From: Candidatus Spechtbacteria bacterium
Lineage (GTDB): Bacteria > Patescibacteriota > Minisyncoccia > Spechtbacterales > JACPHP01
Length of the DNA stretch: 64,000 nucleotides
NCBI GenBank assembly: GCA_016188605.1
Contig: JACPHP010000012.1
Coordinates: 149 to 64,148, forward strand
Reading direction: 5' to 3'
Shown here: positions 10,800 to 36,254 of the stretch, one piece after another
Position numbering within the stretch: the first letter of the stretch is position 1
Layout of the letters: every line of letters begins with the position of its first letter
The notes under the pieces: model-generated
The model's database searches: none
What the model was told of the DNA's origin: nothing
What the model saw: the letters and a program-made list of their open reading frames with translations, nothing else
Position numbers and translations under genes: made by a program

Positions 10800-11375
10800 T
10801 CATTCTAGCTTCAACCTCTCACGAAGGGCATTCACACCCCTATGGGCAATCACCCGCACCGTGCCTTCGGGTTTTCCGACAATATCCGCAATATCGCTAA
10901 ACGGCAGGTCTTCCAAGTAATGCAGGGTAACAATTTCCGCCGTTTCTTCGCCGATTTCTGACAATGCCTGGCGTATACGCGCTATATCAAGAGAGTTTTC
11001 TACGTCTATGTTTATAGCATGCGCTTCGTCTATGCCGCCATGTGTTTCTGGGGCAGCCAACATATCTTCGTACGATACTGTGGGTCGCTGTTTGCGATAG
11101 TAGTCAATCAGGCAATTACGCGCTGTTTTATACAAAAACGCGCGAACGTTTTGAATGCCGCCTAGCGATGTGAGTACGGACGATTCCTGCGCGATAAAAA
11201 CGGCTTTATGCCCATTTTTAGATATCAGATAATTCCACATTCTAAGAAATACTTCCGAAGATAAATCCTGCGCAGTCTCCCTCGAATTTGTTTTCAAAAA
11301 CAGGAAACGAAAGATTTGATCGGCGTACTCGTCGTAAACGCGAGAAAAAAGTTGTTGAAATTGCCTATCTGTCAT
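10800..11375 (-). CDS. ECF-type RNA polymerase sigma factor (sigma-70 family regions 2 and 4).
   Basis: Region 2 is FLFLKTNSRETAQDLSSEVFLRMW. Region 4 is LPFSDIADIVGKPEGTVRVIAHRGVNALRERL. Confidence 0.85.
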   Translation of the reverse strand: MTDRQFQQLFSRVYDEYADQIFRFLFLKTNSRETAQDLSSEVFLRMWNYLISKNGHKAVFIAQESSVLTSLGGIQNVRAFLYKTARNCLIDYYRKQRPTVSYEDMLAAPETHGGIDEAHAINIDVENSLDIARIRQALSEIGEETAEIVTLHYLEDLPFSDIADIVGKPEGTVRVIAHRGVNALRERLKLE

Positions 11376-11652: not shown

Positions 11653-12303
11653 CTATCCCGCAATATAATATTCCCGATTGCGCGTGCCTCCTCTCCTTTT
11701 TATCAAACGCATCTCCTCAAGCTTTTCAATATCCCGCAAAATCGTACGGGGATGCACGTTGGAAAATTTGACAAAAAAGGCTGTGGGGGGAGCCGGCCCC
11801 TCTTCTTTAATTCTCGTTAAAAGTTTTTTCTGCCGAAGATTAAGCAAGTCCGCGGAAGAATCCATCTCAACCACTGAAAAAGATTCTTGTAATCGTCGTT
11901 TGGAGGATTTTCGTTTTCTCGCTAACACGTCTTCGTTTAACGATATGCTGGCCAGCCGCTCTTCCTGCAGTTTTTTTTCTAAATCCTTATAAGCACGGAT
12001 GAGAATCTCAAAATTGCGCCCATTCACCCATTTCTGGCTTTTGGCTATATCTATAAAAGCGTAAAGAACGTCAAATTGTTTTACCGATTCTCTCAAAGAA
12101 GAATGCTTTGCCCCATTGTTATCATCTTTTATTTCGGGAGAGAGAATTTGATTTTCAGCAAAAATGACAAGGGGAATGATATTCAAGCTTGCCTCTCTCA
12201 ATTTGAACCGCAAAGGTTCTTCTTTTGGGAAAAGCTCTGTTACGCGATAAAGCGCCGAACACAGTTTGAGTGCTTCTTGAATCATGCTTCTCTTATACCC
12301 CAT
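11653..12303 (-). CDS. Putative regulator: an N-terminal four-helix-bundle (TIGR02436-like) domain fused to a C-terminal winged-helix DNA-binding domain.
   Basis: The N-terminal sequence ALKLCSALYRVTELFPKEE..RFKLREASLN resembles four-helix-bundle proteins. The C-terminus has an HTH-like LRDIEKLEEMRLIKRRGGTRNREY. Confidence 0.45.
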   Translation of the reverse strand: MGYKRSMIQEALKLCSALYRVTELFPKEEPLRFKLREASLNIIPLVIFAENQILSPEIKDDNNGAKHSSLRESVKQFDVLYAFIDIAKSQKWVNGRNFEILIRAYKDLEKKLQEERLASISLNEDVLARKRKSSKRRLQESFSVVEMDSSADLLNLRQKKLLTRIKEEGPAPPTAFFVKFSNVHPRTILRDIEKLEEMRLIKRRGGTRNREYYIAG

Positions 12304-15800: not shown

Positions 15801-18800
15801 CTAATTCCCTAGCACATACATTAACCCGCCATTAGTGATTGCATAAACTAACCCGTCGCCGATTACCAGCGATAGCACCTTGCTATCAAGCTTGTATTGC
15901 CAAACGACCGTAAGCATGTCTGAATTGGCGGAATTGCCATTTCCATTGTTGTTCGTCGCGCTTTTTTGCAGCGCATAAATGTTTCCCGCTTCATCGCCAA
16001 CATACACTTTTCCGCTAGCGTCCGTGGAAACTAAGCTGCTGATATTGGCCGGCGCGGTAAACACAGCTTTGTTAGTCCCCTTGCTTGCGCCCTGCGTATT
16101 GAACAAATAAATTTTATTTTGCTGATATGACGCGCTGTATATTTCGCCGTTACCCGCGACAACTGGCGACTCCTTAAATGAAAGTGAGGGGCTCGCAATC
16201 ACGCTTTTCCATAAATACGCGCCGCCGTTTTGCGTGTCAAACGCGGCAACGCCTGTATTGATTTGGCTTGTTTGAAACTGCGCGTATAGTATGCCGCTAG
16301 CATCCAGACTTGGATCGCCAAGAATATATGTTATGCCGGTTGCGGGCGCGCTCTGCATATTGCGCGACCATAAAATAGCGCCGTCAGACAAAGATAGGAC
16401 TAGGAGCGTAAAATCATTGTTGGGATTTCTAACTATAACGTAAAGATTGTTGGCATCCAAAACGGGGGTACGAATTACACTAGCCGAAGATCCTGTAAAT
16501 CCGCTGATATTTAAAATACTTCCCCAATTGGGTACGGTTGTCCACAAAACAGTTCCGCCCGAGTCAAACGCCATACACTGGCGAAGCGTGCATGCGTACG
16601 CATTTCCTTGAGAATCTGTGATTGGCGAAGTCGCGTCGTGATTGCCGCCGCTTGTCGCCCACGTAATGCCCAACAAAACAGACGCAAGCAAAGAACCATC
16701 TGATGTTTGCAACACATAAAGCTTCCCTTGCGAGTTTGCAGTATTTGCGCCAATCGAAACAACGTACAATTTTTGGCTATCCGGAGAAAGCGCGGGCGCG
16801 CGCAGGTCGGGAGTTGAAATATCGTAATACCAACGCGCGTTACCATTAATATCGTATGAATATACTGAAGACTTACTCCCTACGGTAGTTGTAAGATATG
16901 AATTTCCCTCCGAATCAATCACGGGTTGAGAGATAGAAAAAGAGTATCCGGCAACTTGCATTTGTGATTTTATTTTTGCGTCACTGCTGGCAGACCAAGC
17001 AGGGCCATTTTTCGTGGACTCGTTTGTATGGCGCGCGTTAAAATATTTCATTGCCCAAATAGGCGCTCCGGAAAAATCCGCTTGCGCGGGCGTCGCGTCA
17101 GAATTTGTCGGCGTTGGTATGTCTAGCTGTGTAAAATCTTGCGCGTTGTTATCAGTGTCTTGATGCTGGTCACCGCGACTAATACTTTTATTTAGAGTTG
17201 GCGCTGCTACGGCTGTGTTTTCTTGCAGCGCGGAGGTTACGTCGCCCCATGCCACCGCATCAATGGGGGTTACCGCGCACGGAGTTTGTTTAGCGCATTC
17301 AGGGTCTTGTGAAAAAATCGCGATCGTTCCGCCCGTGTTTGCCAGCTGCGCGCTAGTGTAGGGCTGCCAGTCGGCGTTAGGGTTGTTGTTTGCTGTGTTG
17401 TATCCTTTGAAACCGATAAGATAGTAAGCGCCTGCGGAAATTAAAGCGGCGGAGGGGAATTGCTTGACGCGCCACGGATTGTCCCAGCTTGTTTTGCTGG
17501 TAGAATAGTACGCGAAATAATATCCGTCCAATGAGATATTCGCATCTGTTGGATTGTATAGCTCTACGAATTCAGAATCTCCTGTCTGTATTTCGTTGAT
17601 AACAATATGAAGCGGCAATGGCTGGAAAGAATCTTCGTCGGTTTCGCTGTCATCTTCGTCTAATTCGTCCGGTGATTGAGAAGAATTTCCGTCGTCTTCG
17701 TCTTCGTCTTCATCTTCATCTTCATCGACTTCATTTTCGTCTTCATCATCATCCGAATCTAAAGAGGTATCTGAATCTTCAACAACGGCCGCGTCATCAG
17801 CGGCCGTGTCATCTTCTTGAATCTCTTGAGTCTCTTGGGCAAGCGCCGCGTTTTGCTTGGGATTCGGAGTAATAGTAATAGAAAAGTCTTGCGCGTTATT
17901 ATTTGTATCAGCGTGGCTTGCGCTACGCGCGATACTTTGATTTATTTCCGGGGCGCCAGCCGCTGCCCCTTCAAAAAGGATAGTGTTTCCCCAGCCGACA
18001 GCGTCAATCATTCCTGCCTGCGCGTCTTGCGCGGATTTAGTTGATGGATCAAATGGAAAAACAGCCACGGTGCCTCCGCTATTTGCCAGCTGCGCGCTAG
18101 TATAGGGCTGCCAGTCGGCGTTGGGGTTGCCGCCGGTCGTGACATAATCCTTCAAGCCGATAAGATAATAATCTTGCCCCGATATACTTGCCCCGTCAGG
18201 AAATTGTTTTACGCGATATGGATCGTTCCACGCTGTTTTTGATGAAGAATAATAGGCAAAATAATGACCGGCGAGCAACATTGTTGCGTTGCTTGTATTG
18301 TAAAGCTCAATAAACTCCGCGTCGCCTGTTTGAATTTCATTTATAACAATCGTGGCGGGAGTGGCAGGCGCGGCAGGAGAATTTTGCTGTGTTTGGTTTT
18401 GTGTTTGCTGCGAGGTGTCGTTTTGCTGAGTGTCCTGCGCGGGCGATGAGCCCGCTGTCGGCGCTTCTTGTTCAAAAATATTTACTCCTCCGGGAGTCAT
18501 GGTTTTGGTCACGCGAAAGTCCTGATTGTTGCTGTTTGTATCCGCGCCGGATGGCCAGCGAATAATGCTCGCGGCAGTAAAAGAAACTGGCGCGGCCGAA
18601 CTTCCTTCAAATAATATCGCGTCGCCCCACCCCATAGCGTCAATGCGCGTGGAGCTACTTGTTTTAGGGTCGCCTTTCCAAAGCGCAAATGCGCCGGCGC
18701 TGTTGCCCAGGAGGTCGCTTGTGTAAACGCGCCAATTAAAATGTTCTGAGAAATCGCCAAATGCTATAATATAGTAGCCGCGCGCGGGAATTACGGCATC

Positions 18801-28199: not shown

Positions 28200-30893
28200 T
28201 CACTGCAATTCCACGCTTATGCTATCATCTTTCGCTTTAACAATCACAGTGCCTCCAGTCACTCCCCTTTTCATAATTTCTTTAGCGAGCGGGTCAAGAA
28301 TTACTTGCTGAATCAATCGTTTGAGAGGACGCGCCCCATAAGTTGGATCATACCCACGACTGGCAAGAACGCGCTTGGCGTGCTCATCAATACGAAGCGT
28401 CAAATCGCTACGGCCAAGTCGATCGCGCAAATGCTCAATTTGAATATCAACGATTTTCACCAACATCGCTGGTGTTAGTGGATGGAAAATAATAATCTCA
28501 TCCAGCCGATTCAAAAATTCCGGCTTAAAAAATGTGCGAAGCTCCTCAAGAATTTTTTCTCGCATCGCTTGTTCTTCCGAGGAAATCCCTCCGTTTTCTT
28601 TTTCGCTTGCCTCAAACGTAAAACCGAGCGGAGAAAACGAGCGTAAATATTCGCCTCCAATATTTGAGGTCATAATAATTATCGTATTTTTGAAACTCAC
28701 CACTCTTCCTTTAGTGTCGGTTAGGCGGCCATCATCCAAAATTTGCAACAGCATATTGAACACCTCGGGGTGCGCTTTCTCAATTTCATCAAAAAGCACC
28801 ACGCTGTATGGGCGACGGCGTATTTTTTCCGTTAATTGGCCTCCCTCCTCATACCCCACATATCCCGGAGGTGAGCCAACCATGCGCGATACGGTGTGAC
28901 GCTCCATGTATTCTGACATATCAAGCCGCACGATCGCGTTTTCATCGTCAAACATAAACTCCGCGAGGGCTCTGGCAAGTTCGGTTTTTCCAACACCTGT
29001 AGGGCCAAGAAACAAGAAAGATCCGATAGGACGATTCGGCTCGCTGACACCAGCGCGATTTCTGCGCACCGCGTTTGCGACAGCATCCACCGCTTCATCC
29101 TGCCCCACTACGCGTTTGCGCAAATTATCTTCCATCTGCAACATGCGCTCGCGCTCCTCCTGCAGCATGCGCGACACAGGCACGCCCGTCCAACGCGACA
29201 CAATGTACGCGATACTTTCATCATTCACCTCCTCGTTTAAAATGCCGCGATCTTTTTGCAAACGAATAAGTTCTTTTTCCGCGGATTTCATATTTTTTTC
29301 CTTTTGCGGAATTGCGCCGTAGCGAATTTCCGCGACTTTTTGCAAGTCGCCGACACGCTCGGCAATATCTGCCTGCTGGCGCGACTCATCTATTTCTTTC
29401 TTTAGAGCGCGTAGACGAGAGATTACATCCTTTTCATTTTTCCATTGCTGCTCCAGCGCGTGCATCTGTTCTTTCTGGTCCGCCAATAATTTTTTAGTAT
29501 CTTTTAATTGCGCTTTTGATTTTTTATCTTTTTCTTTTTTAAGCGCCTCAACTTCAATCTCCATGCGCATCACTTCGCGATGAAGCTTATCAAGCTCCTC
29601 CGGCTCTGACTCGATATTCAAACGCAGCGCGGATGCCGCCTCGTCAATGAGATCCACGGCTTTATCAGGCAAAAATCTTCCCTGCACATAGCGATGCGAA
29701 AGTTCCGCCGCCGCAACAATTGCGGAGTCGGCGATGCGCACGCCGTGATGCACTTCGTATTTTTCTTTAATACCGCGCAAAATTGCAATCGTGTCCTCCA
29801 CGGTCGGCTCATTTACCATCACTGGTTGAAAGCGCCGCTCAAATGCTGGGTCTTTTTCAATGTGCTGCTGATACTCGCGAAGTGTGGTTGCGCCGATCGC
29901 ATGCAGCTCCCCACGCGCAAGCGCTGGCTTTAACAAATTAGACGCATCGATCGCGCCCTCAGCAGCGCCCGCGCCTACCATTGTATGAAGCTCATCAATA
30001 AAAAGAATAAAACGGCCAGCGCTGCGCTCAACTTCGCGCATTACCGCCTTCATTCGCTCTTCAAATTCTCCGCGAAATTTAGTGCCTGCAATTAACGCGC
30101 CAATATCAAGCGCGACAATTTCTCTATCACGCAAACTTTCTGGCACGTCACCCGCGGCAATGCGCTGCGCCAGACCTTCCACGATTGCGGTTTTTCCCAC
30201 ACCAGCTTCACCTATTAACACCGGATTATTTTTTGTCCTGCGCGAAAGAACCTGCATAATGCGGCGGATTTCATCATCACGCCCAATCACAGGATCTAGT
30301 TTCTCTTCGCGCGCGAGCTTGGTGAGATTGCGTGTATATTTTTCAAGCGCTTGAAATTTGCTTTCCGGCTCCGGATCAGTAATGCGCATAGAGCCGCGCA
30401 ATTCCGCTAAAATTTTAAGCACCGTCTGGTAATCTGGCTTGTGCGCTTTCGCATTGCCTAAAACAGAACTTTGCAAAAAACTAACTTGCTGAATCATTTT
30501 TTGCGCCCTACTCGGCGTATCAACCATCGCAAGGAAAATATGCTCAACACTGACGAATTCATCGGAAAAATTTTTCGCTTCCTGCTGCGCGCGCATTAAT
30601 ATTTTCCCTAATTCCGGCGCAACTAACACCTGGCCAAATGGAGGCGCTCCCATAGGCGCGCCCGGACCGGCAGCAAAAATACGTGGCATTTTTTCAAGTT
30701 CCACCTCTATGCTGTGCGTTAAAGCAACGGTGTCAATACCCAGCCGATCCAAAATAGAATGAATAATACTCTCTTCTTGCATTAGCAAAGTAAAAAGCAC
30801 GTGCAAATCACCCACCTGCTGATGGCTTCTTTCTTGAGCAAACTCATGCGCTTTTTGCAAAGCAAGTTGCGCTTTTTGAGTAAAATTATTCAT
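28200..30893 (-). CDS. clpB: ATP-dependent chaperone ClpB.
   Basis: It has two AAA+ modules ([15 protein letters not shown] and [15 protein letters not shown]), a coiled-coil middle domain and a Clp N-terminal domain. Confidence 0.95.
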
Positions 30894-31088
30894 CCCGTTA
30901 AGATAGGTTGCGTTTCCATGCGCGCATGAAAACGCAACCGTAGATATCGCGCGTAAAATTATTATTCAATACACACCTAGATTTCCCCCGCAGAGTTAAA
31001 AAAATATCTGCTGTCTCTGGCGGGATTCATCTCTTATATTATAAGCAATTAGTACTATCTTGGGTAATTTTAATAATATACTATGCAA

Positions 31089-31115
31089 TTAGCACTCAAA
31101 GGTCAAGAGTGCTAA
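31089..31115. promoter_or_regulatory. Perfect CIRCE operator (TTAGCACTC-N9-GAGTGCTAA; HrcA-type) embedded in a 55-bp perfect palindrome (31075-31129). It lies between the divergent clpB and CDC48-like AAA genes.
   Basis: The sequence is an exact consensus match. The extended palindrome adds TATACT -10-like hexamers on both strands. Confidence 0.75.
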
Positions 31116-31221
31116 TTGCATAGTATATTTAATCCGCTCATCTGATTGACAGTGTCTTTCTTTCTGATAAGCTAGCGGTAGAGTTTTTTAAAAATTATTT
31201 TAAGAAAGATGGGGGTGGAAA

Positions 31222-33033
31222 ATGCCTATAGAGATTTGCCCGCATTGCAAGAAAGAACTAGAGTTTAAGTATGGGAAAAACGTCCCTTGCAAAAATTGCA
31301 AGAGATTAGTCGATGTATTCGACGACGAACATCCGTTAGACAACGCACGCCAGCTAGACAGAAAATCGACCAGCAGCGGCTACAGCGCAACTTATCTTAA
31401 TGAAAATGTATCGCGACGAACTGAATTGCATGAGGGGCACGCTGGGAGCAGTATACCCTCAAATGGCGTTACTTACCGGCAGATCGGAGGGCTTGATGAG
31501 GTTATCGCCGAACTTGATCTCATTGTAAATGGGGCACAAAAATATCCCGAGCTCTGGCAGCGTCTGGGCAGAAAGAAAACGCGCGGCGTGTTGCTTTACG
31601 GGCCGCCCGGCTGCGGTAAAACGCTTATAGCGCAAGCCCTTGCGCACGAGGCTCGGAGGAAAGTATGTCTCATACAAGGATCGGAAATTAAAGGATGGCG
31701 ACAAGGGGCTGGGGAGGGCAATCTCACCAGCGCCTACGAATCAGTCAGACCCAATGGAATTTTGATTATTGATGAAATTGACGCTATTGGCGGCAAAAGA
31801 GACCACATGGTCAATGAAGTCAATGCGAGTATCGTGGGAACACTCTGCTCTATTCTTGATGGCGCAAAAAACAAAGACGACGTTATAATAGTCGCGACCA
31901 CCAATAAACTGCACATGCTTGATGATGCTCTGCGGCGTCCGGGAAGATTTGATGTCGAAATACAAATTTCTCCACCTAACGCGAAAGGACGCGTCGAAAT
32001 TTTCAGGATTCATACAAAAAATATGCCGCTTGCCGAAGGCGTTGATCTTGACGAAATAGCCAATAAAGCCCATGGATTTACTGGCGCTGATATCGCCCAC
32101 GTCTCTTCACGCATCAGCCAACGGCTTTTGAAAGAAGCTGTAACGCAACTTAAACAAGGCGTGAGCCCAACAGAAATCGCCAATAACCTTCTTGTCACTC
32201 AAACTGAATTGGAGGAAGTGACCGCCCAAATCACTCCTTCGCTACTGAGAGAAAATTATATGGAAATTGCCAAGGTAACTTGGGAAGACATCGGCGGACT
32301 AGAAAAATTAAAAGATGAACTCCGACATTGCGTTGTCTGGCCGACTCGTTATGCACGGGAGATGCAAACCCTTAAATTGCGCCAACCCAAGGGCATACTC
32401 CTTTACGGGCCGCCCGGCTGCGGTAAAACGCTTATAGCCCGCGCGATGGCTAGAGAAAGTGAAGTCAATTTTCTTGTAGTAAATGGCCCGGCGCTACTTT
32501 CCATGTGGGTGGGAAGCACCGAGGAAGCGATTCGCGATATTTTCGGAAAAGCGCGTCTCGCACAGCCGTGCATCATTTTTTTTGATGAAATTGAATCTAT
32601 CGCTCCGGTGCGAGGTCGAACGTCAGAAAATGACGTGCTTGACAGGGCCGTAGGCCAACTTCTTACTGAAATTGATGGAGTGCAAGCGGTGCAAAATGTT
32701 TTCGTGATGGCCGCAACTAATCGGCCAGACCTCGTTGACCCCGCACTTTTGCGGCCTGGCAGGCTCGACTTACAGTTTGAAGTGCCGCTGCCAGATTCTG
32801 CTGCACGAGAGAAAATTTTTAAAATCCACCTTGAAGGCACTCCTATGCTAGATATTGATTTCGCTGAACTTGCAATGATAACCGACGGCTTTAGCGGCGC
32901 ACAAATTGAATGGATGTGCGCCGTTGCCAAACAAGAAACGCTTGAACGGCACATTTTATCCGGATGCGAATTGATAGTTTTGCATGATGACTTGCTAAAC
33001 GCTTGCGCTCAAGTCGCGCAAAGAAAATATTAG
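31222..33033 (+). CDS. CDC48/VCP-like double-AAA ATPase with an N-terminal C4 zinc ribbon.
   Basis: The zinc ribbon is CPHCK...CKNCK. Two AAA modules each have GPPGCGKTL Walker A, DEID/DEIE Walker B and second-region-of-homology motifs. An identical 38-nt stretch lies at 31594-31631 and 32401-32438. Confidence 0.85.
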   Translation: MPIEICPHCKKELEFKYGKNVPCKNCKRLVDVFDDEHPLDNARQLDRKSTSSGYSATYLNENVSRRTELHEGHAGSSIPSNGVTYRQIGGLDEVIAELDLIVNGAQKYPELWQRLGRKKTRGVLLYGPPGCGKTLIAQALAHEARRKVCLIQGSEIKGWRQGAGEGNLTSAYESVRPNGILIIDEIDAIGGKRDHMVNEVNASIVGTLCSILDGAKNKDDVIIVATTNKLHMLDDALRRPGRFDVEIQISPPNAKGRVEIFRIHTKNMPLAEGVDLDEIANKAHGFTGADIAHVSSRISQRLLKEAVTQLKQGVSPTEIANNLLVTQTELEEVTAQITPSLLRENYMEIAKVTWEDIGGLEKLKDELRHCVVWPTRYAREMQTLKLRQPKGILLYGPPGCGKTLIARAMARESEVNFLVVNGPALLSMWVGSTEEAIRDIFGKARLAQPCIIFFDEIESIAPVRGRTSENDVLDRAVGQLLTEIDGVQAVQNVFVMAATNRPDLVDPALLRPGRLDLQFEVPLPDSAAREKIFKIHLEGTPMLDIDFAELAMITDGFSGAQIEWMCAVAKQETLERHILSGCELIVLHDDLLNACAQVAQRKY

Positions 33034-33244: not shown

Positions 33245-33556
33245 ATGAATCCCAGGGACGCCGCCGATTTAGACCAAAGAGAATTAATCGATTCCTACAA
33301 ATCTCTAGCAAAATGGACGGTGGGGATGGGTGTGTTATTTTTTTTCTTTGATTTAATTTGGCACAGCAAAAACCCCATAAATATCAACGAAGCTGGATTT
33401 GATGTTCTTTGGTTGGTAGTGTCTGGCGTTTTATTCAAAAAATTTAACTGGTTTCCGTTTCGCTATTTTACTTTTACGCAAATCATTTTGTGGGCAATTG
33501 CGACAATAACGATTAGAGGACTGCTGTTTAATTTTTTTGTACCCGGGGCGGCATAA
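33245..33556 (+). CDS. Small membrane protein (103 aa).
   Basis: Strong SD (AAGGAGG) 7 nt upstream; two TM helices. Confidence 0.5.
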   Translation: MNPRDAADLDQRELIDSYKSLAKWTVGMGVLFFFFDLIWHSKNPININEAGFDVLWLVVSGVLFKKFNWFPFRYFTFTQIILWAIATITIRGLLFNFFVPGAA

Positions 33557-33597: not shown

Positions 33598-34908
33598 TTA
33601 CGGCCGCTCTGCTAGGATTGCCTGCACTGTTTTTTCTTCGCCGCGATGAAGAATTTTTATTATGATTGTTTCGCCCACATTATGCTTGGCAATAAGGTCG
33701 GGAAGACTATTTTCTACGGTAATTTTTTTACCGCTAATTTCTAAAATAATGTCATTTTCAACGATTCCCGCCCTATCTGCCGGCGAGCCGGGCATGACGG
33801 CAAGTTCACCCGCCTGCTGGCCGCGCACAACGAGCGCGCCGTAATCAATAGAAAGATTATTTGCCTTTTGTATTGAGTCGTTAATAGTCATAGTGCGCAC
33901 ACCCAAAAATGGATAGCTTATTTTGCCCTTTTCCCGCACATCCCGAATGTCCTTCTTGGCTCTGTTGATGGGAATTGCAAAGCCAATATTTTGCGCGCCC
34001 TCAGCCATCGCGACGTTAACTCCGATCACCTCTCCCGCCAAGTTCAACAGCGGACCGCCGGAATTGCCCGGATTAATCGCCGCGTCAGTTTGAATTAATT
34101 CGCGCAAACGCTCTGATTCCACCCCCTTGCCATTTGCCGTCACGGAACGACGCAAGCCAGACACAACGCCAAGCGATGTCGTATTGTCAAACTCCCCGAG
34201 CGCGTTTCCAATTGCAATGACTGTCTGGCCCTGCGCCAATGCGTCGGAGTCCCCCAACTCAAGAGGCAAAAGGCTAATGCCTGTTACGCGCAAAAGCGCG
34301 AGATCTTCAAACGGATCGCGGGCTACAACCTTTGCTTCATGCTTTTCCCCGTCAGTAGTAACAACCGTATAATCTGCCTCATCGTCTGACACCACATGCT
34401 TATTAGTAAGCACCAGTCCGTCTTTCGATACAACAAAGCCAGTTCCCGCAGAAACTTGTTTTTGTGTTTTTTGCTGATTTTGAGGAGTTTGCGGCGTCAG
34501 TTGAGGGAAAAATTGCTGGAAAAAGGGATCATTAAAAAATGGTGAATAAACCACTGGCACGTCTTTTGTCGCCACCACACTCACCACGGAAGGAGATGCT
34601 TTTTTTACAACGGCTATAATTTTGTCTTCTTGAGAAGTTTGGGGCTGATATATGACCTGTGGGCCGTCCTGACTATTTTGGCCCTGCGTAATCATTTCCT
34701 GCTGCATAGGACGACGTTCAATCTCTCCGAAATATGTTTTTACAAATTGCGGCGGATAATAAAGCACGACAATTGCGCCGCCAAATCCCGCGGCAAAAGA
34801 AATTAGAATGATGACAAAAATTTTCCCAATGAAAAATGTTGGATGATGGCGATCTGCTTTGTAGGGAGAAAATGGAGAAAGCATGGTGATAAAATAATTA
34901 AAGTCCAA
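33598..34908 (-). CDS. htrA: HtrA/DegP-family serine protease with a C-terminal PDZ domain.
   Basis: The catalytic triad context is TNKHVV / DLALLRV / GNSGGPL. It has an N-terminal TM; the start is uncertain. Confidence 0.85.
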   Translation of the reverse strand: MDFNYFITMLSPFSPYKADRHHPTFFIGKIFVIILISFAAGFGGAIVVLYYPPQFVKTYFGEIERRPMQQEMITQGQNSQDGPQVIYQPQTSQEDKIIAVVKKASPSVVSVVATKDVPVVYSPFFNDPFFQQFFPQLTPQTPQNQQKTQKQVSAGTGFVVSKDGLVLTNKHVVSDDEADYTVVTTDGEKHEAKVVARDPFEDLALLRVTGISLLPLELGDSDALAQGQTVIAIGNALGEFDNTTSLGVVSGLRRSVTANGKGVESERLRELIQTDAAINPGNSGGPLLNLAGEVIGVNVAMAEGAQNIGFAIPINRAKKDIRDVREKGKISYPFLGVRTMTINDSIQKANNLSIDYGALVVRGQQAGELAVMPGSPADRAGIVENDIILEISGKKITVENSLPDLIAKHNVGETIIIKILHRGEEKTVQAILAERP

Positions 34909-35036
34909 ATTACAAATGACAAATCAAATCCAAAACTCAAATGTCAAAAGACTATAAGATAGAACACTATAATAGTTATTTTAATTTTTAAATTTTGACA
35001 TTGCTTTGACATTTGTAATTTGTAATTTGACATTTT
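34896..35036. repeat. Heptad-repeat palindromic element (arms built from CAAATGT/CAAATCA units and TTTGACA/TTTGTAA units) in the htrA upstream region.
   Basis: The left arm 34896-34950 and right arm 34991-35036 are inverted repeats. The TTGACATTT core resembles the element upstream of the sigma factor gene. Confidence 0.5.
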
Positions 35037-35054
35037 TATAACAAACAAAATATT

Positions 35055-36254
35055 TTATTTTACTATTCTACCTAATACAACAAGCGCATAGTCTATATCC
35101 TCCCGCGTCGTCTGCCTTCCAAATGAAAAACGAAGGGATTTCTTAGCGTCATCATCGGAGATTCCCATAGCATGAATTACATGTGACGGCTCCACTGCTT
35201 TTGCTGTGCAAGCCGATCCGGCTGAAACACACACTCCTTCTTGGTCAAAAACAATTAACGGGGAATCTGCAGCTATGCCGGCAAGGCGAATATTTACATT
35301 ATTTGGCAAGCGCTTATCGCGCGAACCTTGTAAAATAATTTTTCCCGCAAAACGCTTTTCCATTTCACTAATCATATAGTATCGTAACTCCGCCAGCCGA
35401 GCAACTTCCTCTTTTTGCACAAGCGCTACTTTCTTTATCGCTGCGGCAAAGCCCACTATAGCCGGAACGTTTTCCGTGCTGGCGCGACGACCATATTCTT
35501 GCCCGCCTCCGCTCATCAGCGACGTAAATGGCGCATCTTTCCGCGCATACAAAGCACCAACCCCTTTTGGCCCATAAATTTTGTGGCCAGATAAACTCAT
35601 GAAATCAACGCCGAGATTATCTACGTTGCAATCAAGATAATTTAGTGCTTGCACCGCATCGGTATGAAAATAGGGTATTTGATATCTTCCGCCAGCAGCG
35701 GAAGTGTTCGATATTTGGCGCTTCTTTCCTTTAAGGATTTTACCAATTTCTGCAATCGGTTCAATAGTGCCAACCTCGTTGTTAGCATACATAATGGAAA
35801 CCAATACCGTATTGTCTTTTACGGCATCCGCAACGGCATCTACCGATACTAACCCGTACGAATCAACGGGGATATATGTTACATCAACAACGCCTTCTTT
35901 CTCCAGCTCCTTCAACGGTTGCAGAATTGCCTTGTGTTCAATTGTCGAAGTAATAATGTGCGGCGTAAAATTTGGCAGATCATCGCGCATCGCTTTTACA
36001 ACGCCGCGAATGACAGTGTTATCAGCTTCTGTAGCGGAGCCGGTAAAAATAATTTCTCGCCATTGCGCGCCGACATGACGCGCCACTACTTCTCTCGCGA
36101 TATCTATCGCAATTTGCGCATGCTGCCCCAATGAATGCAAGGAAGATGGATTGCCAAATTCCCCACTAAAATACGGAATCATTGCTTTCTCCACGTCGGG
36201 ATCCATCGGCGTTGTCGCGGCGTAATCAAGATAAATTGTTCGTTTATTTTGCAT
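35055..36254 (-). CDS. Cysteine desulfurase (class V aminotransferase, NifS/IscS family).
   Basis: The PLP lysine lies in SGHKIYGPKG and the active Cys in SAGSACTA. Confidence 0.9.
   Translation of the reverse strand: MQNKRTIYLDYAATTPMDPDVEKAMIPYFSGEFGNPSSLHSLGQHAQIAIDIAREVVARHVGAQWREIIFTGSATEADNTVIRGVVKAMRDDLPNFTPHIITSTIEHKAILQPLKELEKEGVVDVTYIPVDSYGLVSVDAVADAVKDNTVLVSIMYANNEVGTIEPIAEIGKILKGKKRQISNTSAAGGRYQIPYFHTDAVQALNYLDCNVDNLGVDFMSLSGHKIYGPKGVGALYARKDAPFTSLMSGGGQEYGRRASTENVPAIVGFAAAIKKVALVQKEEVARLAELRYYMISEMEKRFAGKIILQGSRDKRLPNNVNIRLAGIAADSPLIVFDQEGVCVSAGSACTAKAVEPSHVIHAMGISDDDAKKSLRFSFGRQTTREDIDYALVVLGRIVK

Follow-up and report, generated by a model that had tools for sequence, protein, structure and literature searches.

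A CIRCE operator within the predicted clpB promoter of a Candidatus Spechtbacteria bacterium, beside a Cdc48-like ATPase gene with a predicted promoter of its own

In Bacillus subtilis, the inverted repeat that controls chaperone expression (CIRCE) coincides with the start site of chaperone operons or closely follows it, and its targets are not known to include clpB. Activity of the repressor, HrcA, is reportedly governed in this organism by titration of GroEL, a model said to go back to Mogk et al. in 1997. Here we describe a CIRCE element and its two divergent neighbors, clpB and a gene for a Cdc48-like ATPase, in a 64-kb stretch of contig JACPHP010000012.1 from Candidatus Spechtbacteria bacterium (the whole stretch of 64,000 nt is called the window below), a member of the Candidate Phyla Radiation (CPR)/Patescibacteria. 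The CIRCE consensus, TTAGCACTC-N9-GAGTGCTAA, and its dependence on HrcA are established according to the account of Zuber and Schumann (1994) as quoted in PMC7464140. In Campylobacter jejuni, the HrcA footprint spans 30-40 bp around CIRCE and constitutes a steric block of RNA polymerase (PMC7464140). HrcA-controlled clpB, lon and dnaK promoters have been documented in Mollicutes, where CIRCE sites with 2 or fewer mismatches are considered functional (PMC5138195), and lon of M. pneumoniae is under CIRCE control (PMC7737663).

The operator in the window has the same consensus as those of B. subtilis groESL and hrcA-grpE-dnaK and presumably the same mechanism, a GroEL-dependent HrcA dimer, but differs in overlapping the -35 element and spacer of the predicted clpB promoter. 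HrcA operators of C. jejuni and Helicobacter pylori also overlap core promoter elements, although HspR co-regulates those promoters and clpB in these species falls to HspR, not HrcA. In Mollicutes (Mycoplasma, Spiroplasma), as here, the genome is reduced and CIRCE lies right within the clpB promoter. The present case differs in phylum, in having the -35 hexamer inside the operator spacer, and in being known from the operator alone, with no repressor gene observed. The arrangement, in which clpB has an HrcA-type operator, was known before from Mollicutes and is not surprising in mechanism. An earlier note on this DNA had described CIRCE as normally controlling groESL/dnaK; the premise that CIRCE at clpB is unusual is only half right, since the clpB and lon promoters of Mollicutes had already been documented (PMC5138195). 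We consider it probable that the CIRCE operator is built into the clpB promoter, and that the ATPase gene was inserted next to it with its own promoter and most likely lies outside direct HrcA control.

The CIRCE core (TTAGCACTCAAAGGTCAAGAGTGCTAA) matches the consensus at 18/18 bases, with 0 mismatches, and is the sole match at ≤3 mismatches in the window, where shuffled sequences give an expectation of 0.02. The runner-up has 5 mismatches and falls within coding sequence. The core is embedded in an inverted repeat, AATATACTATGCAATTAGCACTC-AAAGGTCAA-GAGTGCTAATTGCATAGTATATT, whose arms (31075-31097 and 31107-31129) are 23 nt each, 100% complementary and 9 nt apart, and extend 14 bp past CIRCE on each side; no other copy of the 23-nt arm was detected in the window at ≤3 mismatches (0 expected). 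A search of positions 30700-31400 against Rfam returned only sub-threshold matches to microRNA-type hairpins, located on the palindrome. Each strand has a TATACT hexamer adjoining CIRCE (31077-31082, +; 31127-31122, -). The earlier note was accurate in describing the CIRCE as consensus-perfect and in placing TATACT next to it on both strands, but its "55-bp perfect palindrome" was an overstatement: only the 23-nt arms are perfect, and the asymmetric 9 nt at the center (AAAGGTCAA) make the element an inverted repeat with a spacer. This asymmetry matters because the -35 hexamer TTGACC can be read on the clpB strand only. As it supplies a -35 for clpB alone, the spacer has a direction, towards clpB.

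The gene in that direction encodes a ClpB protein of 897 aa, which matches TIGR03346 above its cut-off (1249.6 vs. 1232.1 bits) and has the full Pfam architecture of the family (Clp_N, AAA, AAA_lid_9, AAA_2 and ClpB_D2-small), in agreement with its previous assignment. Both this protein and the ATPase have 100% identical counterparts at NCBI, from a Candidatus Spechtbacteria MAG. A consensus scan of the intergenic region found a single promoter over the palindrome, TTGACC-17-TAGTAT on the clpB strand, and none on the ATPase strand; all promoters in this study, including both transcription start sites, are predicted from sequence. The -35 hexamer consists of the first six bases of the CIRCE spacer, and the -10 hexamer starts 17 bp further on, 5 nt beyond the CIRCE arm. 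CIRCE is thereby placed within the promoter of a chaperone gene, overlapping the predicted -35 and the spacer that follows it.

Loci of the closest ClpB homologs (65-77% identity, many named Spechtbacteria or Spechtbacterales) were compared with the window. A CIRCE-type 9-N9-9 repeat was present 34-110 nt upstream of the clpB start in 5/5 distinct Spechtbacteria-like loci fetched (Table 1), and when 372 kb of CPR loci were scanned, all 8 sites with ≤2 mismatches proved to be these clpB-upstream sites. The repeat overlaps a -35-like hexamer in every locus, the window and the five relatives alike. This hexamer lies within the spacer in the window, in L104 (TTGACT-17-TACAAT) and in L112 (TTGACA-17-TAAGAT), and within the promoter-proximal arm in L106, L108 and L110, where TTGCTA-17- is followed by TATACT, TATCAT or TATAAT, respectively. 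Two loci carry symmetric, compensated arm changes, TTAGCAGTC/GACTGCTAA in L104 and TTATCAATC/GATTGATAA in L112; the operator of L112 and L113 (9935-9961) is 4 mismatches away from CIRCE and is nonetheless a perfect inverted repeat. That the operator is conserved and its arms compensated speaks for a cognate dimeric protein binding it in this clade, and the symmetric L112 variant suggests that operator and repressor have evolved together. Judged by these sequences, the element is a genuine CIRCE-type operator that is integral to the clpB promoter and not a chance palindrome.

The gene on the other side of the operator was examined through its orthologs. Seventeen distinct ATPase ortholog loci were fetched (L081-L089; L090-L102, from a metagenome scan with a zinc-ribbon alignment; L115 and L116), including those of the closest proteins, P0003 (67%) and P0021 (65%); L095 and L103 are cut at the contig end, leaving about 15 with readable upstream regions. 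CIRCE at ≤4 mismatches was found in 0 of these approximately 15 upstream regions and clpB was a neighbor in none of the loci. The metagenome scan, in which the zinc-ribbon N-terminus was aligned, accounted for 14 loci, again with CIRCE in none. L108 has nifS, htrA and clpB side by side in one orientation, and in L114 the order is nifS-nifU-htrA-clpB. The window retains this order (nifS 35055-36254, htrA 33598-34908, then clpB), broken by the opposite-strand ATPase gene and an unrelated 103-aa open reading frame (ORF). The contiguity of nifS, htrA and clpB in relatives therefore indicates that the adjacency of the ATPase gene and clpB is derived, and in this lineage the ATPase gene appears to have been inserted between htrA and clpB.

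A promoter for the ATPase gene is predicted outside the operator, with a -35 hexamer TTGACA at 31146-31151 and an extended -10, TGn-TAAGCT, whose hexamer is at 31168-31173. Positions 31146-31224 align in register with the promoters and leaders of two ortholog loci, L115 and L089, gap-free over the promoter, and the three sequences have in common TTGACAG, N15, TA(A/T)(G/A)CT and then a similar leader. The promoter scan missed this promoter because its second hexamer has only 3/6 consensus bases. The mirrored TAGTAT in the right arm of the repeat was considered as the ATPase promoter and downgraded, since the alignment matches TTGACA at 31146 to the -35 hexamers of both ortholog promoters. The aligned promoter begins 30 bp beyond CIRCE, and with a predicted start near 31180, CIRCE would lie at about -65 to -91. 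This is beyond the 30-40 bp HrcA footprint of C. jejuni, and direct repression of the ATPase promoter is therefore not expected. The ATPase gene is thus most likely not under direct HrcA control, as far as can be judged from these alignments, and shared HrcA control is possible but unsupported. With CIRCE lacking at the approximately 15 readable ortholog loci, a derived adjacency and an aligned promoter outside the operator, the proposal of the earlier note that the ATPase shares the operator as a member of the heat-shock regulon was not supported.

Several observations weigh against a clpB operator bound by HrcA and serving clpB only. None of the ORFs of suitable size in the window has a match to HrcA, in line with the earlier note, or to DnaK or GroEL, and neither the window nor the fetched loci contain groESL or hrcA-grpE-dnaK. 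A table of Parcubacteria core genes in the supplement to PMC4508563 includes clpB, dnaK and grpE, and neither hrcA nor COG1420, which is weak evidence against universality. The Portnoybacteria clpB locus L114 has no CIRCE, and the operator-clpB arrangement is therefore clade-limited. If the predicted start is right, the clpB leader would be unusually long (~178 nt), and a consensus TATAAT at 31043-31038 could be the -10 of a second, operator-free clpB promoter. Finally, the extensions of the repeat place TAGTAT (31121-31126) and TATACT (31077-31082) in an orientation facing the ATPase gene, and promoters without a -35 exist; an extra HrcA-gated transcript from these hexamers seems to us unlikely.

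These two hexamers figure in the proposal that the palindrome is a shared bidirectional promoter gated by HrcA, in which the mirrored extensions provide a -10 to each gene and both clpB and the ATPase gene belong to the heat-shock regulon. We regard this as a tentative possibility. The perfect 23-nt arms fit it, as a 14-bp extension past CIRCE is very unlikely to arise by chance, and both -10-like hexamers flanking CIRCE, TATACT (5/6 matches) and TAGTAT, would be covered by a footprint of 30-40 bp (PMC7464140); neither, however, has a usable -35 (AAAGGT or ACTATC) or passed the promoter scan. An unfoldase is plausible as a stress gene, but this gene has a much better promoter, aligned with those of two orthologs and outside the operator, CIRCE is missing from the approximately 15 ortholog loci, its adjacency to clpB is derived, and the operator spacer gives a -35 for clpB only. 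A related scenario, in which duplication and inversion of a half-CIRCE plus -10 created a second HrcA-gated promoter facing the inserted ATPase gene, we consider unlikely. If true, an archaeal-type zinc-ribbon Cdc48-like unfoldase would have been recruited into a CPR heat-shock regulon beside clpB, and the growth of a regulon by promoter mirroring at a palindromic operator would be visible at this locus.

It is also conceivable, although highly improbable in our estimate, that a regulator other than HrcA binds the repeat, or that hrcA was lost and the site is a relic, with clpB controlled, for example, by a nearby pair of winged-helix and extracytoplasmic function (ECF)-type sigma genes. In keeping with such a scenario, the window contains no hrcA, the Parcubacteria core-gene list omits it, the operator of L112 has diverged in sequence, and winged-helix and sigma-70 genes are conserved near clpB in L108 and L114. 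The match to the HrcA consensus is nevertheless exact at 18/18 bases, the 9-N9-9 geometry recurs in five genomes with symmetric compensated changes that point to a dimeric cognate protein under selection, and the nearby winged-helix protein has no HrcA domain and nothing that ties it to the site. We know of no regulator besides HrcA that uses the CIRCE motif, which counts further against a substitute. Palindromes can seed chimeric joins, the adjacency of the ATPase gene and clpB was seen in no contig but this one, and other assemblies did not yield the exact ATPase protein, so that a chance repeat, an artefact of assembly where a contig was mis-joined, or an element of purely structural nature might be suspected. 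This we find hardly credible, since shuffled sequences yield just 0.02 expected sites even at ≤3 mismatches, related sites stand at clpB in independent assemblies, and arms limited to 23 nt with differing flanks would be unlike hairpin artefacts. Rfam matches were confined to sub-threshold hairpins, and divergent genes make a terminator role senseless.

The genes of the winged-helix and sigma factor pair are located at 11653-12303 (a 216-aa protein) and 10800-11375 (sigma-70 family, ECF-like), and three lineages keep them at 1-16 kb from clpB (the window; L108, 970-2301; L114, 13957-16003). The 216-aa protein combines an N-terminal helical bundle with a C-terminal winged helix of the MarR/DeoR type. 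It was considered as a disguised HrcA and rejected, as its helix-turn-helix is C-terminal and of the MarR/DeoR type and it has no HrcA domain. A search with an 80-aa consensus of the HrcA DNA-binding domain recovered short HrcA fragments only, none with a CPR name. The supplements of CPR genomics papers that were searched contained no hrcA entry, and in the literature searched we found no paper linking HrcA with CPR, Patescibacteria, Saccharibacteria or Parcubacteria.

For an operator built into the clpB promoter, as we favor, a mechanism can be proposed by analogy with B. subtilis. The sequence of the element, its conservation, its position in a predicted promoter and the lack of CIRCE at ATPase orthologs are observed here, whereas HrcA binding, heat induction and the start sites of both genes are inferred. 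An HrcA dimer on CIRCE would cover the clpB -35 and spacer, keeping RNA polymerase off at normal temperature. Unfolded proteins would then titrate GroEL, HrcA would lose activity, and clpB would be transcribed. The ATPase gene would have entered between htrA and clpB together with its promoter.

The extended arms have a degenerate third copy, an 81% match that forms a 40-bp-period direct repeat of 31076-31096. In the clpB orientation it reads TAGTACTAA-TTGCT-TATAAT, a single CIRCE half-site with a consensus -10 behind it, and it may be a second clpB promoter without a full operator that would escape HrcA. A module of half-operator, TTGC and -10 is accordingly present in three copies, two direct and one inverted, and among relatives the arms of L104 extend just 3 bp past CIRCE and those of the others not at all. 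Because of these three copies and the short or absent extension in relatives, the arm extensions and the third copy are best explained by a half-operator plus -10 module that was duplicated and inverted locally; a purpose-built bidirectional promoter is a less likely origin.

The distance from CIRCE to the clpB ATG is 195 nt in the window vs. 33-109 nt in relatives. Compared with shuffled sequence, the intervening leader (30894-31071, ~178 nt from the predicted start) folds exceptionally well (z = -5.4); it contains a hairpin of 15 bp, the end of which lies 15 nt ahead of the ATG. This hairpin is a possible RNA thermometer or stabilizer.

The ATPase gene encodes a protein of 603 aa with two AAA domains (PF00004 x2). 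Its best matches among solved structures are Thermoplasma VAT (5vc7, 494 bits) and p97, with residues 81-571 aligning to p97 residues 199-696. The CDC48 model TIGR01243 matches over model positions 171-680 only and scores 554.8 bits vs. a cut-off of 802.65, and the Pfam search gave no match to PF02359 or PF02933, the CDC48 N-domains. In their place, the first ~80 residues form a zinc ribbon and linker, with CxxC at residues 6 and 23; the four cysteines of this C4 ribbon (C6, C9, C23, C26) are invariant in 20 family members. The description of the right-hand gene as a CDC48-type double-AAA ATPase with an N-terminal zinc ribbon is thus confirmed. The two Walker A motifs (GPPGCGKT) are intact, as are the two Walker B motifs, and the D2 pore loop reads MWVG. 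The tail (...AQRKY) has no HbYX motif and no penultimate Tyr, and tails in the family end in RK, with or without a final Y, H or F. The protein has in common with archaeal VAT/Cdc48 and eukaryotic p97 the tandem D1-D2 AAA domains with intact Walker motifs, but lacks their double-psi-barrel N-domain (and beta-clam) and the archaeal HbYX tail, and has the C4 zinc ribbon, which we take to be functionally reminiscent of the ClpX zinc-binding domain.

The ATPase family is a small bacterial one, with about 67 clusters at 90% identity, of ~600 aa and 50-67% identical to the query; its few named members are Patescibacteria. Archaeal CDC48 proteins, 45-49% identical, are the nearest outgroup, which makes gene transfer from archaea a plausible origin. 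A search of genome contigs with the full protein yielded archaeal and other Cdc48 proteins at 41-48% identity and no orthologs, and the first 85 residues gave four weak matches among 1.84 billion representatives. Cdc48 together with CPR was not mentioned among the top literature search results. A defence system was considered and rejected: PADLOC, run on the ATPase and three neighboring ORFs, returned generic AAA similarity to IetA and TRIP13, and no partner genes.

Several further features were seen at ATPase loci. Most orthologs (L081, 6975-6990; L091, L093, L094, L096, L097, L115, L089) carry a (C/T)TTTGACAAT box within the predicted 5′ leader, located 10-20 nt upstream of the ribosome-binding site (GGAGG); its counterpart in the window is degenerate (TTTTAAAAATT). 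The box could be an operator or an RNA element. In several ortholog loci, a small Cys-rich ORF (73-80 aa) precedes the ATPase gene and an ORF of ~111-117 aa with the motif ...FELSHF.../...FHELSHM... follows it (L115, 1526-1747 and 3574-3927; L089, 9737-9979 and 11717-12070; L116, 7204-7539). The window has neither at the ATPase gene, and the 103-aa ORF downstream (33245-33556) is unrelated and looks membrane-embedded.

Elsewhere in the window, TGTCAAA/TTTGACA occurs in four copies within ~90 bp (34942-35033) between nifS and htrA, amid short repeats of the ATTTGTA type; the window total is 16 copies vs. about 10 expected. This sequence was considered as a second stress operator common to htrA and the ATPase leader and was rejected, the cluster being absent upstream of htrA/nifS in L108 and L114. 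An ORF of 1694 aa at 15801-20885 (-) combines a staphylococcal-nuclease domain with three lamin-tail domains, and may be a large secreted or surface nuclease, as expected in an episymbiotic CPR bacterium.

Table 1. Features of the clpB-ATPase intergenic region and operators at clpB in related loci
Feature	Position	Strand	Sequence or remark	Basis
Extended inverted repeat	31075-31129	.	23-nt arms AATATACTATGCAATTAGCACTC / GAGTGCTAATTGCATAGTATATT	repeat analysis
CIRCE core, presumed HrcA operator	31089-31115	.	TTAGCACTC-AAAGGTCAA-GAGTGCTAA	consensus match, PMC7464140
Degenerate third arm copy	31036-31056	.		81% repeat pair
Predicted clpB -35	31101-31106	-	TTGACC, within CIRCE spacer	promoter scan; same geometry in L104, L112
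Predicted clpB -10	31078-31083	-	TAGTAT, inside left repeat extension	promoter scan
clpB, gene predicted to be served by the operator	28200-30893	-		TIGR03346 above cut-off
15-bp hairpin in clpB leader	30909-30942	-	34-nt near-palindrome GGTTGCGTTTCCATGCGCGCATGAAAACGCAACC	leader fold z = -5.4
Predicted own promoter of the ATPase gene	31146-31173	+	TTGACA-N16-TGn-TAAGCT, outside operator	alignment with L115, L089
Zinc-ribbon ATPase, Cdc48/VAT-type D1-D2	31222-33033	+	neighbor of the operator; control by the operator only a possibility	domain and structure matches
L104 operator			TTAGCAGTC-TTGACTTCG-GACTGCTAA; one position changed in both arms, repeat still perfect	
L106 operator			TTAGCAGTC-N9-GATTGCTAA	
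L108 operator			TTAGCACTC-N9-CATTGCTAA	
L110 operator			TTAGCACTC-N9-GATTGCTAA; Candidatus Spechtbacteria RIFCSPLOWO2_02_FULL_38_8, GCA_001821885.1	
L112 operator			TTATCAATC-TTGACATAG-GATTGATAA; two positions per arm changed symmetrically, perfect repeat kept	

A perfect operator between divergent genes does not by itself place both genes in the regulon, and the orthology of the flanking promoters is what decides. Very little is known of gene regulation in CPR/Patescibacteria, and the operators described here are the first comparative evidence, in the literature searched, for an HrcA-type regulon in CPR bacteria. The symmetric arm variants (TTAGCAGTC/GACTGCTAA and TTATCAATC/GATTGATAA) constitute a natural series for the co-evolution of operator and repressor. 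That CIRCE has been kept in the clpB promoter across Spechtbacteria-like genomes suggests a classical HrcA thermosensor aimed, as in Mollicutes, at the disaggregase ClpB.

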